Part shown: positions 428 through 45,171 of the stretch, in pieces
Layout: the number at the start of each line of letters is the position of its first letter
Numbering within the stretch: the stretch's first letter is position 1
Source of the DNA: Candidatus Saccharimonadota bacterium
GTDB taxonomy: Bacteria; Patescibacteriota; Saccharimonadia; Saccharimonadales; JAGPDM01
Assembly (NCBI GenBank): GCA_018057585.1
Contig: JAGPDM010000002.1
Location: 1-47,250, forward strand
DNA length: 47,250 bases
Direction: 5' to 3'
Position numbers and translations under genes: made by a program
The notes under the pieces: generated by a model
The model's input: the letters and a program-made list of their open reading frames with translations, nothing else
What the model was told of the DNA's origin: nothing
The model's database searches: none

Positions 428-612
428 AAACAAGATGTCTGGAGAGGAGGTTTTTTATGTGCGTCATCGCATGTTTACACAACCCCTCTCCTCGCGCCCT
501 TGCGCCTCTCGTCTTCCAAAAAGTTCTGTTTGTCTATTTTTACCCCAATTATCGACACCAGAGTAGAACTAAAAATCTACACCAATCCGCCAGAAGCGGA
601 TTCCTAAACATG

Positions 613-853
613 CCAAATCCTACCAGCGGGGATTTGTTAACTTACTTTCGTCTGGGCATAAAGAGGAGCTTCCTGATAAGCGAATGTCATAATAACAATA
701 GAAGGATTCAACTCCGCCCCTTGTGGGCCGAACGAAGTGAGTTGTTGAATCCATTGTTATTATGACGATGAGATTATAAAGAACGACGATAGCCCAGGAG
801 CTTGAGCTACTTGCCGGTGCAAGTAGCATTAGTTTGTTTCTTTGGAAAGAAAA
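613..853. repeat. structured dyad-symmetric intergenic element, copy 1 (candidate ncRNA / MITE-like; aligned in + orientation)
   Basis: Shares blocks CCAAATCCTACCAGCGG, TCTGGGCATAAAG, AGCCCAGGAGCTTG, hairpin GCTACTTGC-cggt-GCAAGTAGC and terminal TTTCTTTggAAAGAAA with copies at 14031, 32786 and 43143. Long central stem GTCATAATAACAAT/ATTGTTATTATGAC. Ends 1 nt before the pilB stop. Confidence 0.8.
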
Positions 854-854
854 C

Positions 855-2630
855 CTACTCTCTAGTAACCCTCATAATCTCATCGATTGTTGTCATTCCC
901 TGAATCGCTTTGACGAAACCGTCTTGCTGCATAGTGACCATCCCATCCTTGATAGCAATGTCCTGCATATCATTTGAAGTGCCGTTATTTACAATCATCT
1001 TTTCAATTTCGTCTGTGACTTTTAATACCTCGTATATACCAATTCTACCCTTGAAGTGATTCGTACCTGGAGGTGCATCTGCTGGCACTTTACCTCGCCA
1101 AAGCGACAATTTGTTATCGACATGCAATTCTTCTGTCTGCTCGCCGGAGCCCTTAACGTCGGTCGACTGCTGTTCATCTGCCTGTTTCGCCTGGGCAACT
1201 ACATCATCGATCTTAAATAGTCCTTTTATCTCATCAAGCTCGGTTTCTTCCGGAACATAGCTTTCACGCATAGACGGATTTAGCCGTCTAACAAGCCTTT
1301 GGCCAATAACAACTCGAACCGTGCTAGCGATCAGGAATGGCTCAATCCCCATCTCAAGTAGGCGCGGCAAGGCTGTCGCGGCATTGTTGGTATGAAGAGT
1401 GCTAAAGACTAGATGCCCTGTTAGAGCTGCCTGAATTGCAAGATTCGCAGTCTCAGCATCGCGGATCTCTCCAACCATAATAATGTTCGGATCTTGCCGC
1501 AAAAGAGCCCGCAGTCCATTCGCAAAAGACATACCCGCCTTGGGATTAACCTGGGTCTGGTTCGTGCCAGGAATACGGTATTCAACTGGATCCTCGACTG
1601 TAGAAATATTAACTCCAGGGGTGTTGAGAAGATTCAAGACTGAATAAAGTGTAGTGGATTTACCAGAACCAGTTGGCCCAGTTACAAGTATTATTCCGTG
1701 TGGTTGAGTAATCGCATCACGAATCGCCTTCAGGGAATAGCCCCAGTAACCTAACTCCTCAAGTGTTAAAGCTTTGGCTGATTCGTTTAGTATACGCATG
1801 ACCACCTTCTCGCCATCCATAATTGGCAAAGTGCTGACACGCAAGGCGAAAAGCTGACCATTGATATCAATCTTGAAACGCCCATCTTGTGGTGCTCGAT
1901 GTTCGTCGATCTTAAGATTAGATAGAATCTTGATTCTACTAATCAGAGCAGCCGAAATATTACTTGGTAGCTTATTAGCCTCTCTTAAAACACCGTCAAT
2001 TCTATATCGCACCTGAACCATGTTTTCCCTAGGCTCAATGTGGATATCGCTGGCCTTTTGCTTGATTGCATATTCAACTAAAAGATTGACCGTCTGGGCA
2101 ATTGGACTATCCTCGGCGATGTCCTCCTCTCTAACTTCTTGAACTTCCGGCTTTGCTTCATTATGAGTCTCGGTCACTTTGCTGATTTCGCTGCCTATCT
2201 CACCCTTGTAGTCGTCAAGTGCGACCTGGATGTCATGACCACTAGCGATCGAAATCTCCATGTCCATACCAAGCTGCTTTTGCAAAAAGTCTATTGCTTG
2301 AAGATCGTCTGGATCTTCCATGGCTAATCGAGGGATCTGGTTTTCATAATCATAGAGGATTACTCGATATTTACGAGCAATTCTTTCAGGTATTTTGTTT
2401 AGGGTCTCTTTTTTTATTTTCCGACCAGCTAATTCAACATAAGGCGTGTTGGTCTCAGTGGCGTAGAGTTTGGTCAGATCCTTTTCGCTAAGAATCTGTT
2501 TCTTAAGAGCTAGAGACTGCAGCGATATTTTATCCTTCTGGCCCTCGGCTTTAAATTCTTCAACTGCTCCATCTTCGAGCTTGCCAGAGTCAACAAGCAG
2601 ATCAACAATCATCGAATCTGGTATTCGCAT
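855..2630 (-). CDS. pilB: type IV pilus assembly ATPase PilB (GspE family)
   Basis: 591 aa. Walker A GPTGSGKSTT, T2SSE N-terminal region, typical GspE/PilB core (RQDPNIIMVGEIRD). Confidence 0.95.
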   Translation of the reverse strand: MRIPDSMIVDLLVDSGKLEDGAVEEFKAEGQKDKISLQSLALKKQILSEKDLTKLYATETNTPYVELAGRKIKKETLNKIPERIARKYRVILYDYENQIPRLAMEDPDDLQAIDFLQKQLGMDMEISIASGHDIQVALDDYKGEIGSEISKVTETHNEAKPEVQEVREEDIAEDSPIAQTVNLLVEYAIKQKASDIHIEPRENMVQVRYRIDGVLREANKLPSNISAALISRIKILSNLKIDEHRAPQDGRFKIDINGQLFALRVSTLPIMDGEKVVMRILNESAKALTLEELGYWGYSLKAIRDAITQPHGIILVTGPTGSGKSTTLYSVLNLLNTPGVNISTVEDPVEYRIPGTNQTQVNPKAGMSFANGLRALLRQDPNIIMVGEIRDAETANLAIQAALTGHLVFSTLHTNNAATALPRLLEMGIEPFLIASTVRVVIGQRLVRRLNPSMRESYVPEETELDEIKGLFKIDDVVAQAKQADEQQSTDVKGSGEQTEELHVDNKLSLWRGKVPADAPPGTNHFKGRIGIYEVLKVTDEIEKMIVNNGTSNDMQDIAIKDGMVTMQQDGFVKAIQGMTTIDEIMRVTRE

Positions 2631-4616: not shown

Positions 4617-4644
4617 TATTTAGTCAAAGTTCTACAAGAGCTCT

Positions 4645-4670
4645 TAAATCCCTCCAATTGGAGGGATTTA
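4645..4670. terminator. hairpin terminator after pilA (AAATCCCTCC-aatt-GGAGGGATTT)
   Basis: Perfect 10-bp stem 29 nt after the pilA stop, followed by a T-rich stretch aagtttcgtt. Confidence 0.65.
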
Positions 4671-5035
4671 AGTTTCGTTGAAAATTATCAAGCCACCCAT
4701 GATCTTCAGTCCTTGTCTGAATAATCCTTCCTTTTCCTAAGAAACAAATGCAATCGCATCTTGCTGATGCACTACTAAAGCTCATGGCAGCAGCTGATCG
4801 GTTGCGAATGAATAGCCTAGCTGTCCATCAAAACTATGTCTATCCGTCCCAGATTGCATGGCAAGCAACTCCAAGTCGACCTTAACTGATTAAGCTAGGG
4901 CTCGCTTAATCTATGCCGATAAAATAAGCTGAGACTGGACATCTAGGTGAATGGGCAAATGCAACTAGTTATTCTATCTCTGCATAAAATAAAGTCTAGT
5001 TTCAATACGCTAAATATGAACGCTAGTTGTGGAAG

Positions 5036-6787: not shown

Positions 6788-7542
6788 TAGTTTATCTTCC
6801 TCATACTTATGGTCGAGGTGGCATCGACAGTCTTGCCAAGTATCCTATTACCTAGCTTGAGCTTTATGGTTAATTTTTCAGCAGAAAGTGGCGAACCGCC
6901 GTTGCTTAGATCTATCTGATTATTGTTCTCGTCGAAATAATTTACCTCGAAATCAATCACATGATCGGAAAGCACTGTATCAACCTTCTGACATCCGCCG
7001 GTACCAAAATTAGCAGTACTGGGGCAGGTTTGCGGACGATAATTCGTGCCACAAGTTGCATATTGTGGTGTCAGAATCCGACGACGCAAAGTGTAGTAAT
7101 CGTTATCGGTATTAGGCTTCATAAAATAGATGATATTATCCGTTGCGATTGGATTATAAGGACTGTAATAGCTACCGCAAGCGTAGTCTCTTTTGTAAAC
7201 AAAATCACGGTCTGGATCACGCCTCGGCTTATCTAATGTGGTTTCGTAAACTATCAGCGTCTGTGGATCAGAATCATGACGCCAACCACCAGTTGGAGCA
7301 AATGGATCGGCCAGAGTACTCGATATAGTATCAGCATAGTCAGTTGCGAATAATAGTTCATCCTGCAACGGGAATAGTATAGTTTGAGCCTCTAGATTAA
7401 GGTTAGTTTCAGCGTTATTGGCTAGTATCGTGTAGTAGCTTCTCTGAGCTAAAACGACGAGAACGGTGATTATGAAAGAGACGACTGGTAACATCACTAG
7501 AATCTCAATCAAAGTAAAGCCTGACTGATTTTTTTTGATCAT
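6787..7542 (-). CDS. minor pilin / pseudopilin (prepilin-type N-terminal domain)
   Basis: N-terminus MIKKNQSGFTLIEILVMLPV. The start overlaps the upstream gene's stop by 4 nt (7539-7542), and the stop codon shares one base (6787) with the start of the next gene. Confidence 0.75.
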   Translation of the reverse strand: MIKKNQSGFTLIEILVMLPVVSFIITVLVVLAQRSYYTILANNAETNLNLEAQTILFPLQDELLFATDYADTISSTLADPFAPTGGWRHDSDPQTLIVYETTLDKPRRDPDRDFVYKRDYACGSYYSPYNPIATDNIIYFMKPNTDNDYYTLRRRILTPQYATCGTNYRPQTCPSTANFGTGGCQKVDTVLSDHVIDFEVNYFDENNNQIDLSNGGSPLSAEKLTIKLKLGNRILGKTVDATSTISMRKIN

Positions 7543-13822: not shown

Positions 13823-14030
13823 AAATGACTTAAGAAAATTATAATTGTACTTGATGGCGATGACGAATCGTATAAATAGATCCAGATAAAGTCGCTAGAG
13901 CCAGCACAATTACCAGCGCACATTCCTTCCGACATAAGGCTACAGATTTGATTATAGCTTTAATGCCTAGTTAGTGGAAACCTATAATTTAAGCTCACAA
14001 ATTACTCTCAGAATGACGAAGATACCTGAT

Positions 14031-14270
14031 CCAAATCCTACCAGCGGGAATTTGTTAACTTCCTTTGTCTGGGCATAAAGGATTGAGTCCTGATATGTGA
14101 ATGTTATTTAAACAATAATACATTTTATCTTGCCCTTCGGGCCGACTGAAAGGAGTTGTTAAAATGATTGTTTCAATAACGATGAACATCTCAAGATGAA
14201 GGATCAGCCCAGGAGCTTGCGATACTTGTCGGTACAAGTATCATTCAATTTGTTACTTTGCAAAAGAAAA
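14031..14270. repeat. structured dyad-symmetric intergenic element, copy 2
   Basis: Same block order as copy 1. Hairpin GATACTTGT-cggt-ACAAGTATC. Central stems GTTATT/AATAAC, AAACAAT/ATTGTTT, CATTTTA/TAAAATG. Apical GCCC-ttc-GGGC. Ends 20 nt from the ruvC stop. Confidence 0.8.
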
Positions 14271-14289
14271 GATTGTTCAGAAGAACATT

Positions 14290-14757
14290 CTATCTCTGAT
14301 GGCTATGACAAAGCGCGGCAGCTAGCGCATCAGCCGCATCGTCAGGGGTTGGTTTAACTTTCAGTTCAAGTAGCACTCTGACCATTTCTTGTACTTGAGC
14401 TTTGGTCGCCTTGCCGTAGCCCGTAACAGACTGCTTAATCTGCAGAGGCGTGTATTCAAATATCTCTAGCCCCGCCACTTCACCGGCCAGCAAAACTACT
14501 CCGCGGGCATGGGAAACAGCGATCGCTGTTGTGACATTCTGTGCGAAGAATAACTTTTCGACCGACATAACTTCTGGTTCAAATTCGCGAATCAGGCCAA
14601 CTAAGTCTGTATGAATAATCTTTAGTCTCTCGGGCAGAGGCGTATGTGGTATAGTTCGGATTACGCCACCAGCCACCATCGATGGCTTGCCTCTTTTAAT
14701 ATCAATCACTCCGAACCCGGTTATGCCAGTGCCCGGATCGATGCCAAGAATCCTCAT
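14290..14757 (-). CDS. ruvC: crossover junction endodeoxyribonuclease RuvC
   Basis: MRILGIDPG start, 155 aa, typical RuvC. Confidence 0.93.
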   Translation of the reverse strand: MRILGIDPGTGITGFGVIDIKRGKPSMVAGGVIRTIPHTPLPERLKIIHTDLVGLIREFEPEVMSVEKLFFAQNVTTAIAVSHARGVVLLAGEVAGLEIFEYTPLQIKQSVTGYGKATKAQVQEMVRVLLELKVKPTPDDAADALAAALCHSHQR

Positions 14758-43119: not shown

Positions 43120-43142
43120 TAATTTTAACAGATTTGTGTGTC

Positions 43143-43330
43143 ATATTTTGTAAATATCTATTAATGATACTTGCGTCGACAAGTACCTCAATCTCGTGGG
43201 CTGGTCATAACTCTTGAGATGTTCATTGTGATAGCGACAATGACTGGAACAGAATATGTGACTAGCCCAGTGTTTAGCGACACTTAACTGCACAGGTGTC
43301 GTTAGATTTGTTTCCTTTCTAAAGAAAGGA
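43143..43330. repeat. structured dyad-symmetric intergenic element, copy 4 (shorter, palindromised variant)
   Basis: The right arm (43262-43330) is collinear with the 3' module of copies 1-3. The left arm (43163-43225) matches the reverse complement of that same module (about 36 of 45 positions against copy 2). A/T hairpins at both ends. Confidence 0.7.
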
Positions 43331-43335
43331 TAGCT

Positions 43336-45171
43336 CTATTCAGCTAGTGCAACTGTTTTTGGGACAATGCTGCCTGCAAATATTTTTAGAACATCGTCTG
43401 CGTCGACTGTCTCTTTTTCTAATAGAATGTCTGCTAGTTTCTTTAAGTATGGCTTGTTGGCGTTTATAACGTCTTCAGCACGTCTTGCAGCCTCTTGAAT
43501 CAGACCTTCAACTTCTGTATCAATCACTTTAGCAGTGTCTTCTGAGTACGGCTTATCATGAACCATACGGTCAAACATCAAGCCGCTATTTTGGTCTGTA
43601 TTAAACACGATGTCGCGTAGTTTCTCGCCCATCCCCTGCTCAACTATCATTTCTCTTGCTAACTCAGATGCTTTTTTAAGATCAGATCCAGCACCGGTAG
43701 TAACGCTATTAACACCGTAAATAACTTTCTCGGCGATTCTACCGCCTAAGATACGAGCTAATACATCTTTGTAGTCATTAATAGAATGGTAGCTTTTATC
43801 TTCTGGTGGGATTGCCCAGGTCACGCCACCAGTACCACCGCGTGGGATAATGGTCACTTTGTGGATTGGATCGCTTAACGGTAATACGTGTCCAACAAGT
43901 GCATGACCAGCTTCATGATAAGCGGTCATTTCCTTTTCTTTTTCGTTCATTATCTTGTTCTTGCGTTCTGGACCGATAGCTACCTTTTCAAAAGCTTCGG
44001 TAACATCAAGATTGTCGATCATTTTTTTATCACGGCTGGCGGCAATAATGGCAGATTCATTAGCCATGTTAGCGAGATCAGCACCACTGCTACCAGCAGT
44101 TTTAGCGGCAAGTGAGCCAAGGTCAACATCGTCGGCCACTGGCTTGCCTTTGAAATGAACTCGCAAGATTGCTTCACGATCCTTACGATCAGGCAAAGTT
44201 ATATTAACTCGACGGTCAAAACGGCCAGGACGCAATAAGGCTGGATCGAGTACGTCAGCTCGGTTAGTTGCTGCCAACACGATCACATTTGAATCACCTT
44301 CGAAGCCATCCATTTCAGTTAAAATCTGATTGAGAGTCTGCTCACGTTCATCATGGCCGCCACCCATTCCAGAACCTCTACGACGGCCAACGGCATCGAT
44401 TTCGTCGATAAATATAATACATGGTGAATTCTTCTTAGCCTTGCTAAACATGTCACGGACACGACTAGCACCAACACCTACAAACATCTCAACGAACTCT
44501 GAACCACTAATGCTAAAGAACGGAACACCAGCCTCACCGGCAACGGCCCGTGCAAGTAGCGTTTTGCCAGTACCAGGAGAACCAACTAACAGCACACCTT
44601 TTGGTATTTTGGCACCCATTTTTTGAAACTTCTTAGGATATTTCAAAAACTGCACAACTTCCGCAAGATCGTCTTTTGCCTCGTCGTTACCTGCTATCTC
44701 GGTGAAATCTACCTTCTTTTTATCTGTTCCGTAGACTCGTGCCTTAGATTTACCGAAACTCATTGCCTGATTGCCCTGGCCTTGAGCATTCTTCATCATG
44801 AAGTAGAAGAATCCAATTATGATAAACACGCTAATGAAGGGTGCGGCTAAGCTGACGCCGGTAGCAAAGCTAGTGCTCTCTGGCTTGACGCTATAATTGA
44901 ACTTGCTAGTATCAACGCCAAGCTCTTTGAGCGAAACATTTGGCTCTTTACGGCTCTTTAGAGTTGGTTTGTCTTTTCCTTCAGTCGTGATCTCTAATAC
45001 GTCACCACGCTGCGTAACTGTAGCAATTTCGCCGTCTTTGGCTCTGCTTGATAGCTCGCTGATGCTTATATCTTTAAGATCAGGGCTTTGTTGCCCGACT
45101 AAATAGACAAGCCCAATCAGTATTAAGGTTGCTATTAAAAACCCGGTTGCTCTTGATGATTTATTTTTCAT
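43336..45171 (-). CDS. ftsH: ATP-dependent zinc metalloprotease FtsH
   Basis: GSPGTGKT Walker A, the AAA second region of homology, HEAGH zinc motif. Confidence 0.97.

Follow-up and report, generated by a model that had tools for sequence, protein, structure and literature searches.

This study concerns an intergenic element that recurs in a 47,250-nt stretch of the genome of a Candidatus Saccharimonadota bacterium (positions 1 to 47,250 of contig JAGPDM010000002.1, the whole stretch being called the window here), with one of its copies lying beside the stop codon of pilB. The comparison of the window with contigs of related species demonstrated a repeat family with a conserved fold, terminal inverted repeats, and sites that are filled in some close relatives and empty in others. 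The element of 240 bases reported in a preliminary description of the same DNA is the well-conserved right arm of a larger non-coding repeat. The family is previously undescribed but of a known general kind, and it probably represents new non-autonomous, hairpin-rich mobile repeats of Saccharibacteria. Concerning the reason for the fold, we give an even chance to the overall reading that this is a mobile repeat whose conserved fold serves the copying machinery, by a mechanism that we infer.

Four copies are present in the window. The recurrence of the element at 14031-14270 and 32786-33024, and in rearranged form at 43143-43330, had been noticed before, and the copies were found at those coordinates with the following limits:

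612-853, plus strand: copy 1, with an extra hairpin at 584-602
14030-14270, plus strand: right arm of copy 2, on the same strand as copy 1
32785-33025, plus strand: copy 3, a single arm on the same strand as copy 1
43141-43330, no single strand: copy 4, rearranged, consisting of two truncated 3' halves inverted relative to each other

Copies 1 to 3 were matched with nhmmer E-values of 1e-68 to 1e-76 (1e-73 to 1e-76 with a profile built from these three copies), and a repeat search revealed no other sizeable repeat family in the window. Their pairwise identity is 74-77%; the copies are thus diverged, as had been judged by eye, although the estimate of two-thirds identity was slightly too low. 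Copy 3 starts 9 nt past the stop codon of a plus-strand gene for a 124-aa protein and ends 10 nt short of the stop codon of a minus-strand DUF3147 gene. Copy 4, which fills the spacer between ftsH and murJ, was matched by nhmmer on the minus strand at 43160-43251 and on the plus strand at 43223-43328.

By its neighbouring genes, the source is a Candidatus Saccharibacteria bacterium. Further copies were found in syntenic contigs, numbered here as L loci, that were reached through RuvC homologues (97% and 88% identity) or DnaK homologues (94-88%) and represent about six related species:

L023:19329-19900: full-length copy in a close relative
L027:1001-1437: further copy
L030:6511-6752: further copy
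L032:14446-14900: further copy
L034:12236-12483: further copy
L035:17425-17640: further copy
L036:13640-14197: copy 5, full-length, in the window's own species, about 7 kb past the right edge of the window

The copies of the family range from 190 to 570 bp, and the source species has five loci in about 56 kb. Contigs of this set belong to the public assemblies GCA_017993655.1 and GCA_020049755.1 (window's species), GCA_017984015.1 and GCA_020050275.1 (close relative), and GCA_009771445.1. No copy was present in the contigs of the more distant relatives L028, L039, and L040 (11-14 kb each).

The full-length copies, of about 555-570 bp, are composed of two head-to-head arms and are bounded by terminal inverted repeats of about 55-70 bp, each of which consists of an A/T hairpin and a terminator-like hairpin of 9-11 bp (P5). 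Two covariance models were applied, namely R1 for this end module (A/T hairpin plus P5) and R2 for the core. An inverted end module stands upstream of the arms in L023, L027, L032, and L036, and R1 matches at both ends, in inverted orientation, in copies 4 and 5 and in the copies of L023, L027, and L032, whereas copies 1 and 3 and the L030 copy have the right end only and copy 2 is truncated at its left end. The two end modules of copy 4 enclose remnants of the 3' strand of P4 and of P2, two helices of the fold described below:

43140-43194, minus strand: left end module of copy 4, inverted (R1)
43272-43327, plus strand: right end module of copy 4 (R1)

The left arms were scored by R2 as inverted, diverged cores (38 bits in L032 and 22 bits in L023). 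Across loci and species they are 76-77% alike, compared with 57-61% against their own right arms, and blocks such as TTCATCAGTTAAAGCCGATGTGG are common to the left arms of different copies. Since the left arms resemble each other most, it is the two-arm composite, and not the single arm, that must have been copied between sites, and the sequence comparison demonstrates its spread as one unit. The left arm is a differentiated, looser version, the fold from P1 to P5 being located in the right arm; beyond the terminal hairpin, no conserved structure was found in the left arm. Pairing of the two arms into one long hairpin was also considered and rejected, as the arms fold separately. The single arms (copies 1 and 3) and copy 4, an internally deleted two-arm form, are derivatives. 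The 240 nt previously taken as the unit are therefore one arm of an element of about 560 bp, and the insertion at copy 2 measures about 415 bp.

When the loci scanned were counted once (about 190 kb), the R1 end module was confined to element ends, in both orientations, and the idea that it is a generic genome-wide terminator was abandoned, because R1 matched nothing but element ends. The same result bears on the proposal that the copies are ordinary gene-end terminators and chance palindromes. The location of the copies at gene ends and their hairpins followed by T-rich tails would agree with such a proposal; however, homology over 240 nt (E of 1e-68 or better), shared ordered blocks with 26 covarying pairs, and an end module that never occurs alone in the DNA scanned refute it, leaving it next to no probability.

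The insertions themselves can be seen by comparing filled with empty sites, most directly downstream of ruvC:

13872-14288, plus strand: whole insertion of copy 2, about 415 bp, as measured against a close relative in which the site is empty

The left-hand part of this insertion (13872-14029) is homologous to the left arm of the full-length copies without its terminal hairpins, its right end carries an additional outer hairpin (GTTCAGAAGAAC), and it adjoins the ruvC stop codon (14290-14292). The spacer downstream of ruvC is 526 bp in the window's species, about 415 bp being element, whereas it is 149 bp and element-free in the close relative with 97% identical RuvC (L023-L026) and 58 bp in a relative with 71% identical RuvC. 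In the close relative, a full-length copy is found next to the pilin gene instead. In the relative with 88% identical RuvC, the copy downstream of ruvC belongs to the sub-type nearest copy 1 and not copy 2. The ftsH-murJ spacer is element-free in three relatives (38 nt in L035, 100 nt in L040, and 75 nt in L039). Moreover, the sub-types cross species at different loci, as copy 2 and the L023 copy are 83.7% identical and copy 1 and the L030 copy 82.4%. In the region between dnaJ and the GH130 gene, five species have a copy, at varying positions and in varying orientation, with changing accessory genes around it; the gene content (window 32402-33854, L030:6510-7299, and L032:11930-13272) differs in each species, and an element copy is found at each boundary.

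Judged from these sequences, the filled and empty sites and the sub-types that cross species mark what appears to be a mobile, or at least frequently transferred, element. Because sub-types are common to several species at different loci, the family has spread while its fold was kept, and the choice offered by the preliminary description, selection on a fold rather than recent amplification, was a false one. Its mention of a repeat like the miniature inverted-repeat transposable elements (MITEs) fits best, given the filled and empty sites among close relatives and the terminal inverted repeats of the full-length copies.

The accessory genes of the dnaJ-GH130 region comprise, in the window, a 124-aa protein with a DGMHR motif (ParB-like by eye only and with no Pfam match) and the DUF3147 membrane protein, in L030 an unrelated 106-aa protein, and in L032 a duplicated NYN-domain gene. 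The flanking hypothetical proteins were considered as a unit with the element and rejected, since they show no similarity among themselves.

A remnant of the element may be present at the pilin locus of the window, where the close relative holds its full-length copy:

4700-4790, minus strand: possible right-end remnant, hairpin GCATC-agcaa-GATGC followed by CATTTGTTTCTTAGGAAAAGGAAGG

This stretch lies in a 419-bp spacer (4617-5035) between the pilin gene and a gene for a 583-aa protein, of which about 300 nt have no match to the family or to the other loci examined. The end of the spacer, with a P5-like hairpin and an A/T hairpin, aligns with the right end of the copy at L023:19329-19900. Neither R1 nor R2 matched 4700-4790, and we tentatively regard it as a decayed right end of the element.

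The fold of the right arm was derived with RNAalifold from 3, 5, and 9 sequences, and the architecture was identical in each run: a hairpin P1, a helix P2 enclosing P3 and P4, the hairpin P5 with its T-rich tail, and a terminal A/T hairpin. The parts of the fold, together with an optional hairpin P0, are located as follows:

584-602, plus strand: P0, GC-rich hairpin AATCCGC-cagaa-GCGGATT directly 5' of copy 1
614-636, plus strand: P1 of copy 1, hairpin CAAATCC/GGATTTG with the conserved loop TACCAG(C/A)GG
652-657 with 792-797, plus strand: P2 of copy 1, helix CTGGGC/GCCCAG closing the central domain 652-797
about 664-675, plus strand: P3 of copy 1, small hairpin within P2, absent from L034 and L035
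671-781, plus strand: P4 of copy 1, long irregular hairpin within P2
806-827, plus strand: P5 of copy 1, hairpin GCTACTTGC-cggt-GCAAGTAGC followed by a T-rich tail
14221-14242, plus strand: P5 of copy 2
32977-32998, plus strand: P5 of copy 3
837-852, plus strand: terminal A/T hairpin of copy 1, TTTCTTT-gg-AAAGAAA, 2 nt before the pilB stop codon

P0, which had been placed one position too far to the left (583-601), has counterparts at the same relative place in L027 (ATCCGCC-ttcg-GGCGGAT) and in L023 (ATTCCGC-atcaagt-GCGGAAT). As it recurs there with altered pairs, P0 is an optional module of the family and not a local oddity. The P1 stem of L027 and copy 5 is a compensatory variant, CGCATTC/GAATGCG, and the sequences of the P1 loop and of the linker are conserved in seven of the eight copies that have P1; L032, L034, and L035 are without P1 and linker and keep the remainder. 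P2 is invariant in most copies and is rebuilt in L034 (CCCGAAC/GTTCGGG) and L035 (CAGAC/GTCTG). Within P4, the GA of GAATGT faces the second GA of CGATGA in a tandem G.A loop (G682 A683 with G770 A771 in copy 1) that is unchanged in all copies, and a bulged purine two pairs away (767 in copy 1) never changes. The unpaired TCCTGA (671-676 in copy 1) is invariant as well.

The fold has strong support from 9-10 distinct copies in about six related Saccharibacteria. Covariation was counted over nine distinct sequences and 45 pairs, against 500 shuffles and controls in slid registers. Standard pairs fill 93.6% of the cells, compared with 78.7% in the shuffles and 35-50% in the slid registers. Changes on both sides were found in 26 of the 45 pairs, while the shuffles gave 12.1 +/- 2.0 (none of the 500 reached 26) and the slid registers 4-9 pairs. 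Between copies 1 and 2, the pair differences amount to 12 double, 0 single, and 1 broken. These counts bear out the earlier suggestion that the differences between copies are compensatory. The other details also hold as described: the blocks are shared, the 3' hairpin has its three covarying pairs, the central stem is rebuilt, and TCTGGGC/GCCCAG forms the closing helix.

The covariation alone does not show that the fold acts as RNA, because the pairs are almost purely Watson-Crick and double changes dominate. In a model-based alignment of ten copies, 416 Watson-Crick, 10 G-U, 6 A-C, and 18 other pairs were counted; the G-U pairs make up 2% of the cells, their excess over A-C (10 versus 6) is not significant, and double changes far outnumber single ones between copies. 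Therefore, the covariation fits folded DNA, or a use of both strands, at least as well as RNA.

The question of RNA can be approached from transcription signals. P5 with its T-rich tail is terminator-like on the plus strand only (copies 1 to 3 and the L023 copy) and belongs to the strongest terminator-like sites of the window, where such sites otherwise barely exceed chance. If each copy were an independently transcribed small RNA (sRNA) gene of about 240 nt, with its own promoter and terminator and acting in trans through the P1 loop (UACCAGCGG) and the U-rich linker, then the terminator-like 3' end on the plus strand and the conservation of loop and linker in seven of the eight P1-bearing copies would be expected. 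A promoter-like site, TTAATG-17-TATAAT, was seen by eye 35 nt upstream of copy 2, although a promoter scan did not list it. In contrast, no promoter-like site recurs upstream of copies 1 and 3 and the copies of L023, L027, and L032, the sequence upstream of P1 is not conserved, P1 and the linker are absent from L032, L034, and L035, and a G-U excess is lacking. Such genes are thus very unlikely, and the independent sRNA role that had been listed among the possibilities is not favoured.

The element is non-coding, as no open reading frame (ORF) is conserved between the copies. A short toxin or micro-ORF of a type I toxin-antitoxin system was considered for the minus-strand ORFs that begin with M-x-RQV-x-QAPGL (20, 60, and 35 aa) and rejected: neither frame nor length is conserved, with frame shifts and, in copy 3, an early stop. 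A 102-aa ORF at 457-765 that runs through copy 1 is almost certainly spurious, and a neighbouring 112-aa ORF (89-427) has no record as a called gene in the public protein collection.

Convergent genes flank six of the ten loci, compared with 7 of the 47 gene junctions in the window. Copy 2 lies antisense between two tandem genes, the orthologous copies of L034 and L035 are in sense orientation upstream of the GH130 gene, and copy 5 is located between divergent orphan ORFs. The preliminary description stated that every copy adjoins the stop codon of a minus-strand gene; the distances in the window are as it gave them (pilB 1-2 nt from copy 1, ruvC about 19 from copy 2, DUF3147 10 from copy 3, and ftsH 5 from copy 4), but they do not make a general rule, as the convergent loci comply automatically and L034, L035, and copy 5 are exceptions. 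Because any insert between convergent genes must face a stop codon, the rule is largely a by-product, and it largely reflects where a compact genome tolerates inserts. An orientation tied to the neighbouring stop codon was rejected on the same three exceptions, and one tied to the direction of replication because the L023 copy is inverted relative to the copies in the window.

One part of the rule does hold. Wherever a stop codon lies within 20 nt of the right end, it is TAG (6 of 6), compared with 13 of 48 genes in the window (27%); the probability of this bias is about 4e-4, counted after the fact. The six stop codons are as follows:

Window 855-857: TAG beside the right end of copy 1
Window 14290-14292: TAG beside the right end of copy 2
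Window 33036-33038: TAG beside the right end of copy 3
Window 43336-43338: TAG beside the right end of copy 4
L030:6507-6509: TAG beside the right end of the L030 copy
L032:14907-14909: TAG beside the right end of the L032 copy

TAG stands between 1 and 12 nt from the element end, with no constant spacing. Since ftsH and dnaJ already end in TAG where the site is empty in relatives, the stop codon did not arrive with the element, and the bias points to a choice of target. In the relative whose site is empty, ruvC ends in TGA, and the C-terminus of RuvC is different beyond HSHQ in each of the three lineages. Short direct repeats are found on both sides of the single-arm copies, namely CCTA (copy 1), CTAAT (copy 3), and TACTA (L030), their left member lying in a stretch that is internal to the full-length copies; the flanks of the full-length copies show no shared repeat, and the one close pair of filled and empty sites has diverged at the junction.

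Based on the reading of a mobile repeat, the fold would be kept as a recognition feature, the copier reading the element as a folded single strand. What is read would be the geometry of the helices and a few invariant unpaired bases and not the sequence, as at REP/RAYT sites, the ends of IS200/IS605 elements, and integron attC sites, and the enzyme would act in trans, being encoded elsewhere in the genome. Transcription from the neighbouring gene would be halted at the far end by the hairpin and T-tract, so that a transcribed element would become a long structured 3' tail and terminator of that gene, and this side effect may make insertions between convergent genes tolerable.

Several observations weigh against this reading. 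No transposase, recombinase, integrase, or reverse transcriptase was found by gene tables and Pfam in the window, in the surroundings of copy 5, and in about 300 kb of related loci, the source genome being covered over about 56 kb. The comparison of flanks gave no clean target-site duplication and no fixed motif or distance for the TAG bias. The copies are 23-30% diverged, and thus no recent burst of transposition is visible. The arms, at about 240 nt, greatly exceed every known folded-DNA recombination site in length and complexity. Nine compensated pairs separate the L034 and L035 copies, which occupy the same locus in their two species; this has the appearance of selection that acts on the fold at a fixed position as well and not in a mobile master copy alone. 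In addition, the UUCG and CUUG loops and the purine-rich invariant loops on one strand hint at RNA.

The last two observations would also be expected if the element were a structured RNA useful to the host, the main alternative, which we consider possible but rather unlikely. It would form the 3' untranslated tail of the upstream gene on the same strand, ending at P5 and the U-tract before a convergent neighbour; the tail would guard the message from 3' exonucleases or shield the neighbour from antisense read-through, and the element would have reached new loci through recombination or by being carried along with a mobile element. Copies 1 and 3 and those of L030, L034, and L035 do lie downstream of a same-strand gene with P5 and the T-rich tail at the far end, and P5 is among the best terminator-like sites where such sites barely exceed chance. 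The fold of L034 and L035 is kept by nine double changes at one locus, the UUCG and CUUG loops and the invariant tandem G.A stand on that strand, and G-U pairs exceed A-C pairs by 10 to 6. However, this excess is not significant and G-U pairs at 2% of the cells would be unusual for a functional RNA. Copy 2 is antisense to both of its neighbours, and the element is dispensable at ruvC in the close relative and at ftsH in other relatives. The U-tract is weak and interrupted, and genes with a canonical terminator of their own, the pilin gene and the 106-aa gene of L030, still adjoin a copy. The pilin terminator (window 4643-4672, 13 pairs, CTTAAATCCCTCC-aatt-GGAGGGATTTAAG) is a strong two-way hairpin, is conserved in the close relative (L023:19938-19966), and is the clearest classical terminator of the window.

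The mobile repeat might instead employ its own RNA. It is quite unlikely that the right arm, with its junction closed by P2 and its long irregular hairpin bearing the invariant tandem G.A loop, represents a novel structured RNA class of about 200-240 nt that acts for the element itself, in an RNA-dependent mobile element; with the same small chance, this RNA could serve, as an example, as scaffold or guide for a recombinase or reverse transcriptase acting in trans. If true, this would account for a 3' end that stays constant, for the variable loss at the 5' or left side, and for the bias toward TAG. A guide of the bridge-RNA or omega-RNA type was considered and rejected, as the flanks of the copies share no motif with which the constant loops could pair.

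Some further observations were made at individual loci. At window position 14049, one strain (L017) has G in place of A; with this G, P1 of copy 2 regains its C-G pair, so that the A-C mismatch in the window is a strain-level polymorphism. Four independent assemblies of the same species (L018, L019, L021, and L022) end within copy 2, at model positions 59, 118, 162, and 162, and most contigs that carry the RuvC of the window's species are shorter than 5 kb; the breaks may be due to near-identical copies elsewhere or to trouble with hairpins during assembly. Around copy 5, six ORFs without a Pfam match lie at L036:10555-14879, about 3.4-7.7 kb past the right edge of the window, and this region is possibly a variable island. 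One of the six encodes the 200-aa neighbour of copy 5, which had no homologue outside its own cluster in a collection of 5.8 billion proteins, and an empty site for copy 5 was not found. In L030, the spacer adjoining the element (6850-6925) contains runs of T8, C8, and T9, which may be assembly or sequencing errors in this NCBI metagenome-assembled genome.

The novelty of the family was examined by several searches. Rfam 15 at gathering thresholds yielded two tRNAs only in the whole window and left the element unmatched, in agreement with its initial description as an unclassified structured intergenic repeat family; at E<=10, copies 1 and 2 and the whole of L027 gave scattered chance matches to eukaryotic snoRNAs and miRNAs (13-20 bits), to a different family each time. 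Nothing similar was found in plasmid and phage records, and pattern scans of viral contigs and metagenomes gave no match. A scan of a genome collection with a loose pattern returned 12 matches, all of them chance matches from unrelated phyla that failed nhmmer and R2. Literature searches brought up nothing relevant, and those on this question yielded no intergenic repeat family and no clade-specific structured element for Saccharibacteria or other bacteria of the candidate phyla radiation (CPR).

The genomes of Saccharibacteria and other CPR bacteria are very small, and selfish or repeated DNA is considered scarce in them. In the DNA examined here, the family occupies roughly one in ten intergenic regions. 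It differs between near-identical genomes, and short-read assemblies break at one of its loci; it is useful as a marker of strain history and as a handle on the enzyme that would move the element. It is also a probable source of transcription terminators where canonical ones barely exceed chance. If the fold acts as RNA, it would constitute a new large class of structured RNA with unusually clean covariation support, and if the element in addition depended on that RNA for its movement, an RNA-dependent mobile element would exist in an ultra-small episymbiotic bacterium.

In comparison with known systems, P5, which is located at the outer end of both arms, resembles intrinsic terminators in that a hairpin of 9-11 bp precedes a T-rich tail on one strand only. 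Its T-tract, however, is interrupted (CATTAGTTTGTTTCTTT) and forms half of the A/T hairpin that follows, and P5 is the last tenth of a far larger conserved unit.

Folded single-strand sites are known from integron attC, from the subterminal hairpins of IS200/IS605 elements such as IS608 and ISDra2, and from palindrome-associated transposable elements (PATEs) as their non-autonomous derivatives. The family shares with them a structure that is kept while the sequence drifts, near-pure Watson-Crick stems, a few invariant unpaired or extrahelical bases, and a constant orientation with respect to the adjoining gene end. attC sites lie directly after stop codons, measure 55-150 nt, and have the basal cores RYYYAAC/GTTRRRY, whereas the arms here are about 240 nt and lack basal cores; the sole RYYYAAC/GTTRRRY pair (ATTCAAC/GTTGAAT in copy 1) is found midway along P4, and copy 2 and L023 do not conserve it. 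The neighbours are not cassettes but pilB, ruvC, ftsH, and dnaJ, all core housekeeping genes, and no integrase was seen in the loci examined. IS200/IS605 elements lack terminal inverted repeats, and their insertion point keeps a fixed distance on the 3' side of a fixed motif of 4-5 nt; unlike these and the PATEs, the family has inverted terminal modules, with TAG in six of six cases at a variable distance of 1-12 nt.

REPINs are inverted doublets of REP sequences. They are moved by RAYT, which is an HUH tyrosine transposase and a relative of the TnpA of IS200/IS605; this enzyme is single-copy and acts in trans, and REPINs persist for a long time and spread slowly. As in the present family, inverted doublets are the apparent mobile unit with single units as derivatives, the sites are intergenic and often between convergent genes, and hairpins are kept by compensatory change. 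In contrast, REP units have about 20-40 nt, while the arms here have about 240 nt, show 57-61% similarity, and fold independently; a RAYT gene was not encountered in the loci examined, comprising about 56 kb of the source genome and the related loci. For REP, IS200/IS605, and attC alike, each defining feature that could be tested is absent from the family.

Bacterial MITEs and structured intergenic repeats include Correia/NEMIS in Neisseria, ERIC/IRU in enterobacteria, RUP and BOX in Streptococcus pneumoniae, and bcr1 in Bacillus cereus. They are often co-transcribed with their neighbours, fold, and affect termination or message stability. Like the family described here, they are non-coding and a few hundred bp long, have terminal inverted repeats, exist as diverged intergenic copies, and vary in presence between close relatives. 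Here, by contrast, no target-site duplication could be discerned, the arms are differentiated and not mirror images, and one arm folds into several conserved helices over about 200 nt, its asymmetric loops being invariant and its covariation heavy; to our knowledge, such a fold is not a described feature of those MITE families, and we know of no parent insertion sequence with matching ends. Based on these comparisons, the family, which is confined to a narrow clade of environmental Saccharibacteria, probably belongs to the general class of bacterial MITEs and REPIN-like elements.

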